Sequence record: PP047755
Strand: one strand, 5' to 3'
DNA length: 64,000 bases
From: Escherichia phage KEP1
Positions 54,274 to 59,864 of this stretch are shown here, piece by piece (the first letter of the stretch is position 1; each line of letters opens with the position of its first letter). Both the position numbers and the translations under genes were made by a program. The notes under the pieces were generated by a model. The model was not told the DNA's origin. It searched no databases and worked only from the letters and a program-made list of their open reading frames with translations.

Positions 54274-54350
54274 TGGAGAATCCGAAGGGACTCGAACCCT
54301 TATAAACCTGTTTTGCAGACAGGCACATAGCCATTTCTGTCACGGATTCA
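54274..54350 (-). tRNA. tRNA-Cys (anticodon GCA), boundaries +/-3 nt
   Basis: Cloverleaf by eye: T-arm rc AAGGG-ACTCGAA-CCCTT, anticodon stem CCTGT/ACAGG, loop CUGCAAA, 7-bp acceptor, CCA encoded. Confidence 0.65.
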
Positions 54351-54353
54351 AAT

Positions 54354-54443
54354 TGGAGGAAGATACCAGACTTGAACTGGTACACCGATTTCTCAGCTAC
54401 TGGCAGTTTAGCAAACTGCTCCCTTACCTTTTAGGGTTAATCT
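54354..54443 (-). tRNA. tRNA-Ser (anticodon GCU), type II, about 90 nt
   Basis: Acceptor GGAAGAT/ATCTTCC, anticodon stem GCAGT/ACTGC, loop UUGCUAA, long variable arm, CCA encoded. Confidence 0.65.
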
Positions 54444-54448
54444 TCCAT

Positions 54449-55246
54449 TTATTTCTGTAATGCGTTCTTCATTTCTGGTGTTGCAATAGTGTCAATTACA
54501 CCAGTTTTACAAGCATCATCAAACCAGTCTGGTAAGATACCTGCTAAGAACCCATTGATATTCGTTTTAAGGTACTCTGCAATAAGGGCAGCTTCTTCTT
54601 CAATCATCTGCACAACTTCATCTGCATAAGCTGTAATCTTTGAGATACCTTCATTAATCTTACTAACAGCTTGGTTAGCTAAATCAGAAATAGTATCAAG
54701 ACCTTTATCAATAGCATCCTGTAAGTCACTTAATACATCATTAACACCGTCTAGTGCACTGTTAATCGTATCAATAGCTTTTTGACCATACTCTGTAGCA
54801 ACACCCATAATACCACTAAATGGTGTACAACCGACTTGCTCTCCTGCTGCACCCATAACATTGGAATATCCTTTTGCTACCTGCATACGTGATGAAAACT
54901 CATCAATGGACTTTTGACCGTAATCTGTCAGTGTCTTAGTAGTTGATGTAGTGCTTGTCAGACTCGTTGTAAAGCTGTTAAGCAGAACTGTTGTAAGTCC
55001 AGCAGCAATAAGCTTATCCTTTATTGTAGGGTCTGTTACAGAGCTAATAGAGCTTACAAGTGATGTAGAGGCAGCTACGGTTCCACCGAGAACTGCTGCA
55101 CCAGTAATAAGGGGATTAGAAAACCCTCTACCGGTTTTTAAGAGATTAAAAATCTCCTTACCTTGTTCTGTCATCTCTTTCATTAAGCACCTTTGAAATT
55201 GGTAGTCCAGTGGGATTTGAACCCTCTTCTCATGTTTTTCAGACAC
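54449..55246 (-). CDS. hypothetical protein inside tRNA cluster (Thr/Ser-rich, hydrophobic segment)
   Basis: 265-aa ORF between tRNA genes, co-oriented; ORF-track start may overlap the tRNA-Phe 3' end. Confidence 0.5.
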   Translation of the reverse strand: MSEKHEKRVQIPLDYQFQRCLMKEMTEQGKEIFNLLKTGRGFSNPLITGAAVLGGTVAASTSLVSSISSVTDPTIKDKLIAAGLTTVLLNSFTTSLTSTTSTTKTLTDYGQKSIDEFSSRMQVAKGYSNVMGAAGEQVGCTPFSGIMGVATEYGQKAIDTINSALDGVNDVLSDLQDAIDKGLDTISDLANQAVSKINEGISKITAYADEVVQMIEEEAALIAEYLKTNINGFLAGILPDWFDDACKTGVIDTIATPEMKNALQK

Positions 55247-55276
55247 GCGCTTTAACCATATAAGCTACTTGGACTA
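55200..55276 (-). tRNA. tRNA-Phe (anticodon GAA)
   Basis: Acceptor TAGTCCA/TGGACTA, anticodon stem CGTGT/ACATG, loop CUGAAAA. Confidence 0.6.
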
Positions 55277-55281
55277 TAAAT

Positions 55282-55357
55282 TGGGGTGACCTACGGGATT
55301 TGAACCCGTATAGACCATGTTCACAGCATGGGTCATTACCATTTATGATAAGGCCAC
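55282..55357 (-). tRNA. tRNA-His (anticodon GUG)
   Basis: T-arm ACGGG-ATTTGAA-CCCGT (rc), anticodon stem CCATG/CATGG, loop CUGUGAA. Confidence 0.6.
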
Positions 55358-55388
55358 ATTTAAGGACTCTCGTAAGAACCCTTAGAAG

Positions 55389-55464
55389 TGGCAGCGGCAT
55401 AAGGATTTGAACCTTAATAAGACAGCTTCAGAGACTGCTGCATTGCCAGTTATGCTATACCGCT
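55389..55464 (-). tRNA. tRNA-Gln (anticodon CUG), tentative
   Basis: Acceptor and T-arm clear; anticodon loop CUCUGAA with G-U containing stem. Confidence 0.45.
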
Positions 55465-55469
55465 AAATT

Positions 55470-55558
55470 TGGTACTCCATATCGGATTCGAACCGATACA
55501 TAACACAGATTTTAAGTCTGGCCTCTCTGCCAATTGGAGTAATGGAGCATTGGCGGGG
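55470..55558 (-). tRNA. tRNA-Leu (anticodon UAA), type II, about 86 nt
   Basis: T-arm ATCGG-ATTCGAA-CCGAT (rc), anticodon loop CUUAAAA, long variable arm. Confidence 0.55.
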
Positions 55559-55560
55559 GA

Positions 55561-55636
55561 TGTTGGAATTGAACCAACTTCTTCGATTTCAAAGACCGAG
55601 GTTTTAACCTTGTAAACTAATCCCCTTTAAATCTTT
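55561..55636 (-). tRNA. tRNA-Gln (anticodon UUG)
   Basis: T-arm GTTGG-AATTGAA-CCAAC (rc), anticodon stem TCGGT/ATCGA, loop CUUUGAA. Confidence 0.55.
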
Positions 55637-56192
55637 ACTTTCTCAGTGGATGAATAAAGAATGCCAACATAACTCTTTCCCTTGAGAATGCTCTTTCTTC
55701 TGGGACAACACTTTTTAGCTTCCATCCAACATAAATTCTCCAGTAGAATTGTTTACCAAAGACTTTAATTGATGGGATAAAAGCGAATAATCCCCAAGCA
55801 TTACTGTTCCACATTAGGAGATAACCTGTCTGATTATCTTCAGGGTTAGAACTTACGTTGATATTACCTTTCCACTTAGTAACATCTTTTACATCTCTTC
55901 CTAATACATGGTAAGAGAAGTTATAAGCTTTGTTTCTCCAGAGCCAACCGACTCTCTGCATATAGACACCAAGCTTGCCAATCTTTCTAATCTTAGCCCA
56001 TCGTTCGACATGCCCTTTATCACCATCAATTGGGTTGTCATATGTCTCCATCCATCTGAAGCCGAAAGGTAAGTGTCCTTTCTTCTCACTGTAGAATGGA
56101 ACTACAAAAGGTGCTAAGATAACTGCTAAGATTGCTGCAAATGGTTCTAACAAAGCTAAGAAAATCCATGAAGCATACTTCAAATATCTCAT
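55635..56192 (-). CDS. hypothetical membrane protein inside tRNA cluster
   Basis: 185 aa; N-terminal hydrophobic helix (WIFLALLEPFAAILAVILAPFVVPF); Trp/Tyr-rich. Confidence 0.5.
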   Translation of the reverse strand: MRYLKYASWIFLALLEPFAAILAVILAPFVVPFYSEKKGHLPFGFRWMETYDNPIDGDKGHVERWAKIRKIGKLGVYMQRVGWLWRNKAYNFSYHVLGRDVKDVTKWKGNINVSSNPEDNQTGYLLMWNSNAWGLFAFIPSIKVFGKQFYWRIYVGWKLKSVVPEERAFSRERVMLAFFIHPLRK

Positions 56193-56211
56193 CTAAATAG
56201 CCTCTTTAAAT

Positions 56212-56287
56212 TGGCGCAGGATAAGGGATTCGAACCCCTATTAACAGCTTCGTAGACTGTTGCTCTATCCATTTGAACTAATCCTGC
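56212..56287 (-). tRNA. tRNA-Arg (anticodon ACG)
   Basis: Acceptor GCAGGAT/ATCCTGC, anticodon stem ACAGT/GCTGT, loop CUACGAA. Confidence 0.65.
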
Positions 56288-58680: not shown

Positions 58681-58684
58681 ATTA

Positions 58685-58826
58685 AATTATCTTTGTAGAT
58701 AAGCTACCCAGACTTGCTTAAGGTCTGTAGCGATGTGTCTTTTCGGGTTAAATCTAGAATCTACCCTTTCACCTTTGTGGTCGCATACTCACAGGTAAGC
58801 TTAATAACTTATCTACAAAGATAATT
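58685..58826 (-). ncRNA. Structured non-coding element: 19-bp perfect inverted repeat enclosing about 104 nt (candidate small RNA; strand assumed from context)
   Basis: AATTATCTTTGTAGATAAG (58685-58703) pairs perfectly with CTTATCTACAAAGATAATT (58808-58826); inner hairpin CAGAC-TTGCTTAA-GGTCTG. Confidence 0.4.
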
Positions 58827-58928
58827 ACCAGACCGTTGTTTATCATCTTAAGTGCTACCATTACACCAACTCGACATCTGCCGAGTGAAGGAATCGAACC
58901 TTCGCCTTTTCTTTACCGGAGAAATAGA

Positions 58929-58956
58929 TTGTTTAAAGTTTGCTGTAAACGGTCTT
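58929..58956. repeat. 28-nt direct repeat TTGCTGTAAACGGTCTTCTGTAAATTTG, copy 1 (copy 2 at 59509-59536)
   Basis: Identical 28-mer at both positions; shorter GGTCTTCTG cores at about 59036 and 59690; partner CCAGACCGT upstream of each. Confidence 0.7.
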
Positions 58957-59133
58957 CTGTAAATTTGTTGAGCCAGACCAAGTTTTAAATTTTTCAAAAT
59001 TAAATTGGCTTGAAATTTTAAGTAACTTGCTGAATTTGGTCTTCTGCTCCTTTAAAGAATACTCGTAAGAACTCTTTAAGGGAGGGGCTAAATAGCCCTC
59101 TCAAAACATCATTTTGAAATACTTATTATAATT

Positions 59134-59211
59134 TGGCGGTTACGAAGGGATTCGAACCCTCATCATCTCCCGTGACAGGGGAGTATTTTAACCAGATTAA
59201 ACTACATAACC
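59134..59211 (-). tRNA. tRNA-Asp (anticodon GUC)
   Basis: Anticodon stem CTCCC/GGGAG, loop CUGUCAC; T-arm AAGGG-ATTCGAA-CCCTC (rc). Confidence 0.65.
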
Positions 59212-59217
59212 TTTATT

Positions 59218-59305
59218 TGGTGTGCCGTGTAGGAGTCGAACCTACCGAGTCTCAATGACAAGGGATTTACAGTCCCCACCGCTACCATCTACGGGATAAC
59301 GACAC
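59218..59305 (-). tRNA. tRNA-Tyr (anticodon GUA), type II, about 85 nt
   Basis: T-arm GTAGG-AGTCGAA-CCTAC (rc), anticodon stem GGGGA/TCCCT, loop CUGUAAA, long variable arm. Confidence 0.6.
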
Positions 59306-59374
59306 ATTTAATTTCTATTCAGGCTAAGGACTTGCACCTTACAAATCGGTGAGCAATCGCTTCTCTCCTAAATT

Positions 59375-59451
59375 TGGCGGTTAGTCAGGGATTCGAACCC
59401 TGTGCCATTCGCTTAACAGGCGACCGCACATACCTTATGTGCTTCCTAACC
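59375..59451 (-). tRNA. tRNA-Asn (anticodon GUU)
   Basis: T-arm CAGGG-ATTCGAA-CCCTG (rc), anticodon stem TCGC/GCGA, loop CUGUUAA. Confidence 0.6.
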
Positions 59452-59508
59452 ATGTTTAGTATTACCAGACCGTATCTTTCAATTTTTCCGCTAAAAATTT
59501 AATAAATA

Positions 59509-59536
59509 TTGCTGTAAACGGTCTTCTGTAAATTTG
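59509..59536. repeat. 28-nt direct repeat, copy 2, abutting the 3' end of the next tRNA
   Basis: Identical to 58929-58956; partner ACCAGACCGT at 59464-59473. Confidence 0.7.
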
Positions 59537-59611
59537 GAGGCGGGTGCAGGAGTCGAACCTGCCGATACCATGCTAATGAGACATGTGAGACGCCCTTTCT
59601 CTATACCCGCA
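59535..59611 (-). tRNA. tRNA with CAU anticodon (Met / initiator / Ile2 type), pos-37 pyrimidine and mismatched 1:72 by eye
   Basis: T-arm GCAGG-AGTCGAA-CCTGC (rc), anticodon stem CATGT/GCATG, loop CUCAUUA. Confidence 0.5.
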
Positions 59612-59702
59612 ATTCTTAATGACCAGACCAAATCTCTTCTTTGTCCGATTTCGTGTCAGATGAATAAGATTAAGTTTGCTGCAATTGGTCTTCTGTCAAA
59701 AC

Positions 59703-59780
59703 TGGCGTTCCAGAAGGGATTTGAACCCTCAAATATCCACTTTGAAAGAGTGGTGACTTTACCATTTTGTCTACTGGAAC
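59703..59780 (-). tRNA. tRNA-Glu (anticodon UUC)
   Basis: Acceptor GTTCCAG/CTGGAAC, anticodon stem CCACT/AGTGG, loop CUUUCAA. Confidence 0.65.
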
Positions 59781-59787
59781 ATTAATT

Positions 59788-59864
59788 TGGTCTCTGTTGG
59801 AGGACTTGAACCTCCGGCCTTACCGCCCCAAACGGAACGCTCTACCAAGCTGAGCTAAACAGAG
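59788..59864 (-). tRNA. tRNA-Pro (anticodon UGG)
   Basis: T-arm GGAGG-ACTTGAA-CCTCC (rc), anticodon loop UUUGGGG (G37), acceptor CTCTGTT/AACAGAG. Confidence 0.6.

Follow-up and report, generated by a model that had tools for sequence, protein, structure and literature searches.

The 64,000-nt stretch of Escherichia phage KEP1 analyzed here (sequence record PP047755; hereafter the window) belongs to a Felixounavirus and carries a cluster of transfer RNA (tRNA) genes on its minus strand. Over 94–99% of its length, the region 54200–59900 shares 95–97% identity with Salmonella phage Felix O1 and with dozens of Felixounavirus genomes. We describe four paralogous RNAs, that we named Y1 to Y4, located on the same strand in gaps of this cluster between 59698 and 58825, and a gene directly upstream of the cluster that encodes a DUF2828 protein with a predicted Ro60 fold. 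This gene and Y1–Y4 were overlooked in a preliminary description of the sequence, which had read every recurring T arm and every gap as tRNA or spacer; Y1–Y4 are non-tRNA RNAs that occupy such gaps. All features are listed in table 1.

ARAGORN identified 25 minus-strand tRNA genes, the outermost ends of which fall exactly at 54274 and 59864, in keeping with the limits of the cluster given previously. The proposed number of about 27 tRNAs is matched as well, as the array totals 25 solid tRNA genes and two degenerate or doubtful tRNA-like genes. Rather than rejecting most of the candidates, the Rfam tRNA covariance model passes 24 loci at its gathering score (29 bits), 23 of which are common to ARAGORN. 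Together, the genes serve 19 amino acids, Trp being the missing one. A CCA end is encoded in 24 of the 25 genes, the exception being tRNA-Ser (UGA), which agrees with the preliminary description; the strictly conserved AATT trailer that it added is not upheld, the trailers being A/T-rich, with AATT in seven genes and ATTT in six. The cluster is real, was previously annotated in Felix O1, and as an array offers nothing new. Felix O1 (GenBank AF320576 / NC_005282) shares the tRNA order, the homologs of ORF48 and ORF49, and the HNH gene, and differs by two additional HNH genes and by an annotation of 22 tRNAs (ORF44-49 region). The gene order is likewise annotated in phage heid. In Felix O1 and the other records Y1–Y4 are unannotated, and some records label these stretches "hypothetical protein."

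Y1–Y4 share a fold composed of a 4-bp lower stem, an asymmetric internal loop, a 6-bp upper stem GACC(A/G)N, a sequence box, a loop, the 3′ strand of the stem, and UG. In the alignment of the paralogs, the box reads UU(A/G/U)CAGCAA with an invariant CAGCAA, and the loops range from 35 to 103 nt; folding predicts the ACAGCAA box to be single stranded. The layout of Y1 is UGAC / AGAA / GACCAA-UU-GCAGCAA, a 44-nt loop, and UUGGUC-UG-GUCA; that of Y2 is UUAC / AGAA / GACCGU-UU-ACAGCAA, a 35-nt loop, and ACGGUC-UG-GUAA; and that of Y3 is GAGC / AGAA / GACCAA-AU-UCAGCAA, a 45-nt loop, and UUGGUC-UG-GCUC. The lower stem varies from copy to copy (UGAC/GUCA, UUAC/GUAA, and GAGC/GCUC). The order CAGAAGACC, CAGCAA, GGUCUGG is common to the four paralogs. 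In the DNA, AGAAGACC and GGTCTGG each occur four times, in register, within 59698–58825, and the joined pattern CAGAAGACC...GGUCUGG has no further occurrence in the 64-kb window. The order of the elements is kept across Ounavirinae genera, and the lower stem of Y2 shows a compensatory change from UUAC/GUAA to UUGC/GCAA in heid, in Suspvirus CHB7, and at a further locus (L012).

The loop of Y4 contains, from 5′ to 3′ in the minimum-energy fold, a small hairpin, a T arm (58903–58887, GAAGG-UUCGAUU-CCUUC), a closed acceptor-like stem of 7 bp with the tetraloop AGAU (58886–58869), UG, and a D arm (58866–58852) with the loop AAUGGUA, preceded by a U8. The two strands of the acceptor-like stem occupy the places that in a tRNA belong to its 3′ and 5′ acceptor strands. 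The Rfam tRNA model aligns with the T-arm half only, at a sub-threshold score of 24.7 bits. We considered this match (58879–58943) as a 26th or 27th tRNA and rejected it, as it covers just the hairpin, the T arm, and one acceptor strand. Since the next 7 nt pair with this strand over a 4-nt loop and are followed by the D arm, the segment forms a permuted tRNA-like module inside Y4, the T arm of which explains why another T arm is seen here when the sequence is read by eye. The artifact of "two adjacent tRNAs," about which Chen et al. caution (PMC4201824), was rejected for Y4 on the same grounds; CCA, trailer, and flanking tRNA halves are absent as well.

Y1–Y4 lie 0.3–1.2 kb downstream of the DUF2828 gene. 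Pfam recognizes DUF7788 (7.5e-44) and DUF2828 (9.4e-29) in its 471-aa product, and the corresponding PHROG 850 is named "RNA-binding protein." An AlphaFold model computed with 40 homologs has a pLDDT of 89 and a pTM of 0.88. When this model was compared with the PDB using Foldseek, the nine best matches were all Ro60/TROVE structures aligned over the full length, the best being 2i91 (TM 0.66, E 3.5e-8) and the others including 9kop, 2nvo, 1yvp, and 9nfa. The MIDAS residues D279, S281, S283, T349, and D381 (DxSxS...T...D) are invariant in the 40 homologs. The protein is thus predicted, on the basis of the model, to form a Ro60-like ring of HEAT-like repeats joined to a vWA domain with a MIDAS site. 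A tblastn search detected the DUF2828 family in 709 phage records; among its members are genes of mycobacteriophages that carry the annotation "Ro-like RNA binding protein."

Elements built like Y1–Y4, with other stem sequences, are present in the intergenic DNA adjoining the DUF2828 gene of many phages, on the strand of the gene and as one to eight tandem elements. They were found in Klebsiella FBKp34, Vibrio phi-pp2, Aeromonas LAh_6, Campylobacter F358, Mycobacterium phage Faith1, Listeria P100, Staphylococcus CF1, Bacillus MrDarsey, Sinorhizobium phiM7, and Enterococcus CCS1. Across these phages the stem sequences bear no relation to one another, and the CAGCAA box does not vary. The module made of T arm, closed stem, and D arm recurs in elements of Klebsiella, Faith1, Bacillus, Sinorhizobium, Enterococcus, and Vibrio. 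Four hallmarks define the family: the terminal stem has 6 bp and usually begins with G, a UU-ACAGCAA box adjoins its 5′ strand and is single stranded, the loop is free in form, and (U/A)G makes up the 3′ tail.

For searches we used a descriptor consisting of a 6-bp stem with at most one G-U pair, a 2-nt linker, NCAGCAA, a loop of 8–170 nt, the 3′ strand, and (U/A)G. In the seed loci (141 kb), it matched 39 times on the gene strand and never on the opposite one, with 1.3 matches expected in shuffles. In 75 unseen IMG/VR loci (755 kb) there were 78 matches on the gene strand and 3 on the opposite strand (5.85 in shuffles), and in 80 unseen GTDB contigs (623 kb) 89 and 10, respectively; 53 of the 75 loci and 50 of the 80 contigs were positive. 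Over the 155 unseen DUF2828 loci, the gene strand thus carries 167 matches versus 13 on the other. In IMG/VR, 55 of the 78 matches lie within 600 nt of the gene and none inside it. In the window, the descriptor detects Y1–Y4 and three scattered sites, versus 1.1 expected by chance. Positions left free by the descriptor are conserved as well: the first stem position is G in 89%, the fourth is U in 85%, and the second linker position is U in 89%. The figure for the stem G refers to 72 unseen elements, in which the tail is (U/A)G and the base that follows is U in 35%, tied with A as the commonest. The elements follow the DUF2828 gene and not the phage lineage.

All six stem pairs covary, with 103 cells changed on both sides versus 26 in shuffles; pairing was imposed here by the way the elements were selected, the variety of sequence was not. 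A first covariance model (R1), with loops trimmed to 12 nt, was discarded: the real loops measure 18–140 nt, and for this reason the model picked up nothing beyond generic hairpins and isolated pieces of the motif. A second model (R2) was trained on 66 elements with 30-nt loops, none of them from Ounavirinae. Its best match on either strand of the window is Y2 (33.6 bits, E 5.1e-6) and its second best is Y1 (17.6 bits, E 0.078); Y3 scores 12.9 bits. Y1–Y4 are members of a widespread RNA family, linked to DUF2828 in a strand-specific manner and covarying in its stem.

An ordinary tRNA array might contain stem-loops of this kind in its gaps as spacers, as RNase III/E/P processing signals, or as terminator-like hairpins. 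Y1 and Y2 are separated from the flanking tRNAs by 3–10 nt, strong hairpins unrelated to the family occupy other gaps, spacers are also present in the T4 and T5 arrays, and 28 of the 75 IMG/VR loci have tRNAs within 5 kb, all 195 of them on the gene strand. However, the elements occur in 53 of these 75 loci although 47 have no tRNA within that distance; the link to tRNA arrays is frequent, not obligatory. Moreover, the T5-like and T4-like tRNA clusters used as a negative control (30 kb) contain no element on either strand. The single-stranded heptamer is invariant across phages of Proteobacteria, Firmicutes, Actinobacteria, and Campylobacterota, and a conservation of this breadth would not be expected for a host-specific processing site. 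We consider it improbable that Y1–Y4 are spacers or processing signals.

Several other RNAs were encountered around the DUF2828 genes. Two tRNA genes are over-long (114 and 117 nt), one in Klebsiella phage FBKp34 (L002 10003-10116) and one in Aeromonas phage LAh_6 (L004 3494-3610), and have an insert, a stem plus a UUACAGCA(A/U) box, that separates the D arm from the anticodon region; even with it, the gene of the Aeromonas phage scores 49 bits as a tRNA. In Listeria phage P100, a ROOL RNA (RF03087, L007 4426-4977; 86 bits, E 6e-16, slightly below the gathering score) separates the tRNA array from the DUF2828 gene; in the record of this phage, the tRNAs are listed on the strand opposite to that found by Rfam. 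Two IMG/VR loci carry near DUF2828 a phage-borne transfer-messenger RNA (L085 8364-8687, 108 bits) and a group I intron (L037 10696-10922, 71.5 bits), respectively.

The elements could also be conceived as selfish or structural DNA devoid of RNA function, such as miniature mobile repeats, targets of homing endonucleases, or recombination sites. They are arranged in tandem with a copy number that varies from one to seven per locus, HNH genes are found nearby, and a copy is inserted within some tRNA genes, namely the two over-long ones. Against this stand the strict strand bias relative to the gene, the compensatory changes that preserve RNA pairing, the sequence between modules, which is free to vary, and flanks in which there are neither terminal inverted repeats nor target duplications. 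Such an origin appears to us very improbable.

In some loci, mini-elements with loops of 8–19 nt reach, by their 3′ strand or tail, into the Shine-Dalgarno sequence or start codon of the DUF2828 gene (L003 7966-8007 and L010 4897-4931, in Vibrio phi-pp2 and Sinorhizobium phiM7; L018 4955-4987, L026 1765-1796, L027 2860-2891, and L083 4908-4944). Translational autorepression by an RNA-binding protein classically has this layout. This arrangement suggests that the DUF2828 protein also represses its own translation, and it is the best internal support for the proposal that this protein binds the RNAs.

The relationship of a ring-plus-vWA protein gene with small RNA genes is reminiscent of Ro60 and Y RNAs. 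Ro60 (Rsr) of bacteria and mycobacteriophages is known together with the Y RNAs YrlA and YrlB, YrlA corresponding to Rfam RF02553 (Chen et al. 2014, PMC4201824). Y RNA genes are expected within about 4 kb of a Ro60 ortholog, on the same strand, and YrlA has between the strands of its terminal stem a T arm, followed by a closed acceptor-like stem and then a D arm (PMC4201824). Phage-encoded Ro60–Y RNA particles have been described (PMC4201824; PMC12135203); phiRo60, with Yrl1 and Yrl2 of Thermus phage phiLo, also recruits the host polynucleotide phosphorylase (NAR 2025, PMC12135203). The DUF2828 loci similarly combine small RNAs, with a conserved motif placed on a terminal stem, and a ring-plus-vWA protein gene a few kb away on the same strand. 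The tRNA-like module of Y4 (58903–58852) has the arm order of YrlA, and at least one RNA of this type is often present per locus; the shorter RNAs without the module resemble YrlB. As to the neighborhood, the product of the same-strand gene close to Y1–Y4 has the predicted Ro60 fold, but it is neither a Pfam TROVE protein nor a relative of Ro60 by sequence. As for phiRo60, a phage-encoded protein of this fold, here a predicted one, stands beside small-RNA genes, and 9KOP is its second-best structural match (TM 0.59–0.60).

There are also differences. The phage protein belongs to DUF2828/DUF7788 and not to TROVE, and has no sequence-level match to Ro60; the DUF2828 profile has no such similarity to 9KOP either. 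The motif of the DUF2828-locus RNAs is UUACAGCAA, in the loop beside the 5′ strand, in contrast to GNCGAA(N0-1)G near the 5′ end of Y RNAs, and Yrl1 and Yrl2 were chosen by their CGAA motif. These elements are, in addition, inside a tRNA operon and in up to seven tandem copies. In favor of the resemblance, the YrlA model (gathering score 69 bits) matches tRNA-like modules of elements at other DUF2828 loci, all at sub-threshold scores, of 39.2 bits (L037), 37.7 bits (L112), and 21.4 bits (Faith1); the one in L112 (3749-3862, E 1e-4) spans the full model and coincides with the ACAGCAA element 3736-3851. Non-tRNA stable RNAs beside phage tRNAs are also known from phage T4, in which the tRNA cluster includes the small stable RNAs species 1 and 2 (rnaC/rnaD), co-transcribed and co-processed with the tRNAs. 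We know of no DUF2828 gene in T4, and a T4-like tRNA cluster contains no ACAGCAA element.

The only Rfam model that aligns end to end with the phage elements, always on the DUF2828 strand, is Dicty_Class_I_RNA (RF01414). The scores are all below the gathering score of 41.5: in the window, 20.1 bits for Y2 (full model) and 14.7 bits for Y4; elsewhere, 22.7–29.8 bits for five Aeromonas LAh_6 elements, 23.1 bits for Listeria P100, and 26.6 bits for the L085 locus. The Class I RNAs of Dictyostelium, reported to be unique to Dictyostelia, have a stem joining the ends, in which a 5′ G pairs with the C of a 3′ CUGU, and an 11-nt box, CCUUACAGCAA, that is near-invariant at U3, C6, C9, A10, and A11 throughout the dictyostelids (Kjellin et al. 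2021, PMC7919456). The phage elements likewise possess a 6-bp stem joining the ends (GACCGU/ACGGUC followed by UGG in the window), in which the 5′ G is near-invariant and pairs with the C of a 3′ CUG(U), an unpaired box resembling that of the Class I RNAs, (CC)UUACAGCAA, directly after the 5′ strand, a variable remainder, and a core of about 55–60 nt. Nine of the 11 box positions (UUACAGCAA) are identical in Y2 and Y4, Y1 and Y3 carrying G or U at the A position, and U3, C6, C9, A10, and A11 are all kept. Conversely, the phage linker is one nucleotide shorter, tRNA-like inserts are possible, and a DUSE promoter is presumably lacking. A DUSE about 60 nt upstream and termination of the RNA polymerase III type are eukaryotic features, not expected in a phage. 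Given that Class I RNAs were reported to be unique to Dictyostelia and that their known direct binder is an RNA recognition motif protein, homology of the phage elements to them is putative. As a whole, the family joins a tRNA mimic of the YrlA type to a stem and box of the Class I type, and matches the formal definition of neither.

A wider relationship may be envisaged, in which stem-ACAGCAA RNAs are the long-sought ligands of a DUF2828 family of Ro60-shaped proteins found in phages, giant viruses, bacteria, and eukaryotes, and Class I RNAs are its eukaryotic branch. We hold this as possible, though doubtful. If true, the particle would be an ancient, horizontally mobile analog of Ro60–Y RNA, and Class I RNAs, at present believed to be exclusive to dictyostelids and linked to multicellular development, would have relatives elsewhere. 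DDB_G0281243, a protein of unknown function pulled down with DdR-21, a Class I RNA (bioRxiv 10.1101/2020.04.05.026054), would then be predicted to be an amoebal DUF2828 protein.

On balance, we think it probable, with appreciable room for doubt, that the Felix O1-type tRNA operon also encodes a Ro60/Y RNA-like particle made of Y1–Y4 and the neighboring DUF2828 protein. For the RNAs of the window, we infer expression, processing, binding by a protein, and a biological role. Promoter-like consensus sequences would place them in an operon of the sigma-70 type, with minus-strand transcription from the sites at 60011–59983 and 59920–59891 and an internal site at 58431–58403; the mobile or accessory genes HNH, DUF7338, and DUF7217 are interspersed in it. 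Enzymes of tRNA processing could free the Y RNAs, RNase P by cutting at the downstream tRNA and 3′ trimming by acting at the upstream tRNA; processing at both flanking tRNAs would set free Y1 and Y2, each about 80 nt long. As Ro60 does with Y RNAs, the DUF2828/vWA protein would bind the stem and the ACAGCAA box, and the variable loop, tRNA-shaped in Y4, would set the target of the particle. Candidate targets are enzymes that handle, modify, or repair tRNAs, exoribonucleases, and host nucleases directed against tRNAs. The role of the particle might be the surveillance, protection, or repair of the RNAs of phage translation during infection.

Several observations weigh against this proposal. The tRNA array is explicable without it. 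The descriptor and its seeds were derived by eye from a subset of loci, and the strict descriptor has no match in 22 of the 75 IMG/VR and 30 of the 80 GTDB loci. R2 scores are weak for Y1, Y3, and Y4, owing to loop-length penalties. The Y RNA motif GNCGAA is absent from Y1–Y4, and the Rfam YrlA and Y_RNA models have no match in the window, none even at E ≤ 10 for YrlA. No mini-element is present in the DUF2828 leader of the window itself, which is of the Felix type. With respect to the protein, hmmsearch of the PDB sequences with the DUF2828 profile returned no Ro60/TROVE chain, nor did single-sequence phmmer, and Pfam reported no TROVE match beside DUF2828 and DUF7788; the homology of DUF2828 to Ro60 hence rests on the predicted fold. 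Finally, the look-alike Class I RNA is directly bound by Rnp1A, an RNA recognition motif protein and not a Ro-like one (PMC7919456).

This last point agrees with another interpretation, according to which the RNAs are real and stable and DUF2828 is not their ligand: they would act through ACAGCAA, either as small RNAs by seed pairing with a conserved target or as sponges or decoys for an RNA-binding protein or nuclease of the host, the association with DUF2828 reflecting a shared pathway. The predicted single-stranded state of the box fits such a role, and the tRNA-like modules could decoy anticodon nucleases. Yet mini-elements cover the Shine-Dalgarno sequence or start codon of DUF2828 in at least six lineages, which is most simply explained by an operator for its own product, and Ro60 proteins, the closest structural relatives, bind stem-plus-motif RNAs encoded next to them (PMC4201824, PMC12135203). 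We judge a partner other than DUF2828 unlikely, while giving it some weight, and retain the particle of Y1–Y4 and DUF2828 as our working interpretation.

Table 1. Features of the tRNA operon and its surroundings in the window, in the direction of the minus strand
Feature	Position	Strand	Evidence or remark
Promoter-like site upstream of DUF2828 gene	61485..61514	−	TTGACA-18-TAAAGT, 10/12 consensus match
DUF2828 + DUF7788 (vWA) gene, 471 aa, predicted Ro60 fold	60030..61445	−	Pfam, PHROG, AlphaFold, Foldseek
Promoter-like site between DUF2828 gene and tRNA-Pro	59983..60011	−	TTGACA-17-TAATAT, 10/12; overlaps 12-bp hairpin
Second promoter-like site, ~30 nt upstream of tRNA-Pro	59891..59920	−	TTGACA-18-TAAAGT, extended TG
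tRNA-Pro (UGG)	59788..59864	−	ARAGORN; Rfam tRNA 57.7 bits
tRNA-Glu (UUC)	59703..59780	−	ARAGORN; Rfam 60.6 bits
Y1, between tRNA-Glu and tRNA-Met	59620..59698	−	Fold, paralog alignment, descriptor 59690-59624
tRNA-Met-type (CAU), atypical cloverleaf	59535..59611	−	ARAGORN and fold; U37; tRNA-Met in Felix O1 annotation
Y2, between tRNA-Met and tRNA-Asn	59462..59531	−	Covariance model R2, Rfam RF01414, fold z −2.1
tRNA-Asn (GUU)	59375..59451	−	ARAGORN; Rfam 48 bits
tRNA-Tyr (GUA), long variable arm	59218..59305	−	ARAGORN; annotated tRNA-Tyr in relatives
tRNA-Asp (GUC)	59134..59211	−	ARAGORN; Rfam 65.3 bits
Y3, between tRNA-Asp and tRNA-Lys	58970..59049	−	Fold, alignment, descriptor 59041-58974
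Y4, between tRNA-Asp and tRNA-Lys, 103-nt loop	58825..58962	−	Minimum-energy fold, descriptor 58954-58829
Highly structured 146-nt stretch, 24-bp closing helix	58681..58824	−	Between Y4 and tRNA-Lys (UUU)
tRNA-Lys (UUU)	58605..58680	−	ARAGORN; Rfam 55.2 bits
tRNA-Met-type (CAU)	58524..58600	−	ARAGORN; Rfam 53.7 bits
tRNA-Ile (GAU)	58447..58522	−	ARAGORN; Rfam 62.3 bits
Internal promoter-like site, best of region	58403..58431	−	TTGACA-17-TATAGT, 11/12 matches
Aberrant tRNA-Arg(UCU)-like gene	58001..58079	−	Rfam tRNA 31.7 bits
HNH endonuclease gene, 115 aa from ATG at 57982	57635..57982	−	PHROG 2255 at 1.2e-39
Trp(CCA)-like tRNA-like element, triplet in 9-nt loop	57421..57495	−	Rfam tRNA-Sec model 23 bits, E 0.45
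tRNA-Ser (UGA)	57312..57401	−	ARAGORN; Rfam 31.1 bits
Long hairpin, ~90 nt	57059..57150	−	Folding of 57059-57200, z −4.8
tRNA-Leu (UAG)	56981..57058	−	ARAGORN; Rfam 40 bits
tRNA-Lys (CUU)	56898..56973	−	ARAGORN; Rfam 56.9 bits
tRNA-Ala (UGC)	56816..56891	−	ARAGORN; Rfam 56.9 bits
tRNA-Gly (UCC)	56735..56809	−	ARAGORN; Rfam 60.9 bits
tRNA-Thr (UGU)	56652..56727	−	ARAGORN; Rfam 58.4 bits
Structured 96-nt spacer, tRNA-Val/tRNA-Thr	56556..56651	−	Minimum free energy −30 kcal/mol, z −3.8, 0/200 shuffles
tRNA-Val (UAC)	56481..56555	−	ARAGORN; Rfam 55.8 bits
tRNA-Leu (CAA)	56402..56479	−	ARAGORN; Rfam 43.7 bits
tRNA-Arg (ACG)	56212..56287	−	ARAGORN; Rfam 59.8 bits
DUF7338 gene, 185 aa, hydrophobic N-terminus	55635..56192	−	Pfam 8.1e-62; PHROG 2143, unknown function
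tRNA-Gln (UUG)	55551..55626	−	ARAGORN; Rfam 56.6 bits
tRNA-Leu (UAA)	55470..55548	−	ARAGORN; Rfam 47.5 bits
tRNA-Gln (CUG)	55389..55464	−	ARAGORN; Rfam 58.7 bits
tRNA-His (GUG)	55282..55357	−	ARAGORN; Rfam 53.3 bits
tRNA-Phe (GAA)	55200..55275	−	ARAGORN; Rfam 45 bits
DUF7217 gene, Ser/Thr-rich, 244 aa from ATG 55183	54449..55183	−	Pfam 1e-89; PHROG 2114
tRNA-Ser (GCU)	54354..54446	−	ARAGORN; Rfam 46.2 bits
tRNA-Cys (GCA), final array gene	54274..54349	−	ARAGORN; Rfam 56.4 bits
Terminator-like hairpin and T run downstream of array	54094..54111	−	Consensus match alone

Four genes of the array deserve comment. The single Rfam locus without an ARAGORN call, at 58001–58079, has a 7-bp acceptor stem, ACCA, a UCU anticodon arm, and a good T arm, together with a nearly absent D arm and a long variable region. 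A canonical tRNA-Arg(TCT) stands at the same position in Mooglevirus Sf14 and in Suspvirus CHB7, and its anticodon arm can be aligned with that of this locus. The element at 57421–57495 is sub-threshold in Rfam, has no ARAGORN call, folds with a z score of −2.6, and may be a pseudogene. Two ARAGORN calls are below the Rfam tRNA threshold, tRNA-Tyr, the sole Rfam match of which is to the tRNA-Sec model (29.6 bits), and the tRNA-Met-type gene at 59535–59611, which has no match to the tRNA model at E ≤ 1. The latter, which stands between Y1 and Y2, is perhaps neither an ordinary elongator nor an ordinary initiator tRNA.

The three embedded protein genes of the preliminary description all belong to real families, and only the length of 265 aa given for one of them is revised. 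This DUF7217 open reading frame (ORF) overlaps tRNA-Phe and its Pfam match begins at residue 29, the overlap making the ATG at 55183 a likelier start. The Pfam match of the HNH gene is weak (0.0028); Felix O1 and heid both have the gene annotated as HNH. The GC content of the window is 39%, and that of third codon positions across 29 long ORFs is 32%. In these ORFs, 72% of the codons can be decoded by the phage's own tRNAs according to wobble rules; tRNAs for TTA and CTA are present in the array. AGA, which is rare in enterobacteria, is the top Arg codon (41%), and the aberrant Arg(UCU)-like gene is its sole possible server. The codon data are consistent with the compensation proposed previously, here for an AT-rich codon set, which is still unproven; they are also compatible with the more recent idea of phage tRNAs standing in for those of the host that are destroyed in infection or by defense nucleases. 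A large genome, also proposed, is borne out moderately, the relatives measuring 83–93 kb, and not beyond that.

Other gaps contain structured stretches. That at 58681–58824 has a minimum free energy of −46.9 kcal/mol (z −6.1), and none of 200 shuffles was as stable. A match of 57054–57153 to MIR473 (27.7 bits versus a gathering score of 52, E 0.01), which overlaps the long hairpin at 57059–57150, is at chance level. The length of the gap 56556–56651 is similar in heid. Neither 58681–58824, nor 56556–56651, nor the long hairpin matches an Rfam family at threshold. The 114-nt gap between tRNA-Leu(CAA) and tRNA-Arg(ACG) (56288–56401, minus strand) contains a 35-aa ORF (MSNKSIAKKF...) after an AGGAG ribosome-binding site, and its equivalent in heid is 6 nt long. 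The 69-nt spacer between tRNA-Tyr and tRNA-Asn (59306–59374, minus strand) carries a T-arm-like remnant (AAGGUGCAAGUCCUU; z −2.6); as this gap is only 9 nt in heid, the spacer represents either inserted sequence or a tRNA that has decayed. Two copies of the hairpin-loop sequence GUUCUUACGAG are present in the array (55369–55379 and 59062–59072, both minus strand), and each caps a short stem. Outside the array, a group I catalytic intron (RF00028, 64.2 bits versus a gathering score of 50) at 22051–22334 on the plus strand probably interrupts a phage gene.

In the literature searched, which did not extend to two reviews from the Wolin laboratory, we found no description of this RNA family or of its link with DUF2828, and Rfam has no family for stem-ACAGCAA elements; the family is apparently undescribed. 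Annotators could replace the "hypothetical protein" or mis-sized tRNA labels of these stretches. Y1–Y4 offer a candidate RNA partner for DUF2828, a family of more than 2,500 database clusters, in addition to the phage records mentioned above, with unknown function, for which the existing "RNA-binding" label of annotation pipelines derives from the fold alone. By analogy, the principle of Ro60–Y RNA would be extended to a second protein family with another recognition motif. The elements may also be the first hint of relatives of Class I RNAs beyond Dictyostelia, where the function of these RNAs has been open for two decades. Many bacterial defenses cut tRNAs, which makes the integrity of these RNAs in infected cells a subject of current interest. 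The physical tie of the putative particle to phage tRNA operons points to a role in keeping the RNAs of translation intact during infection.

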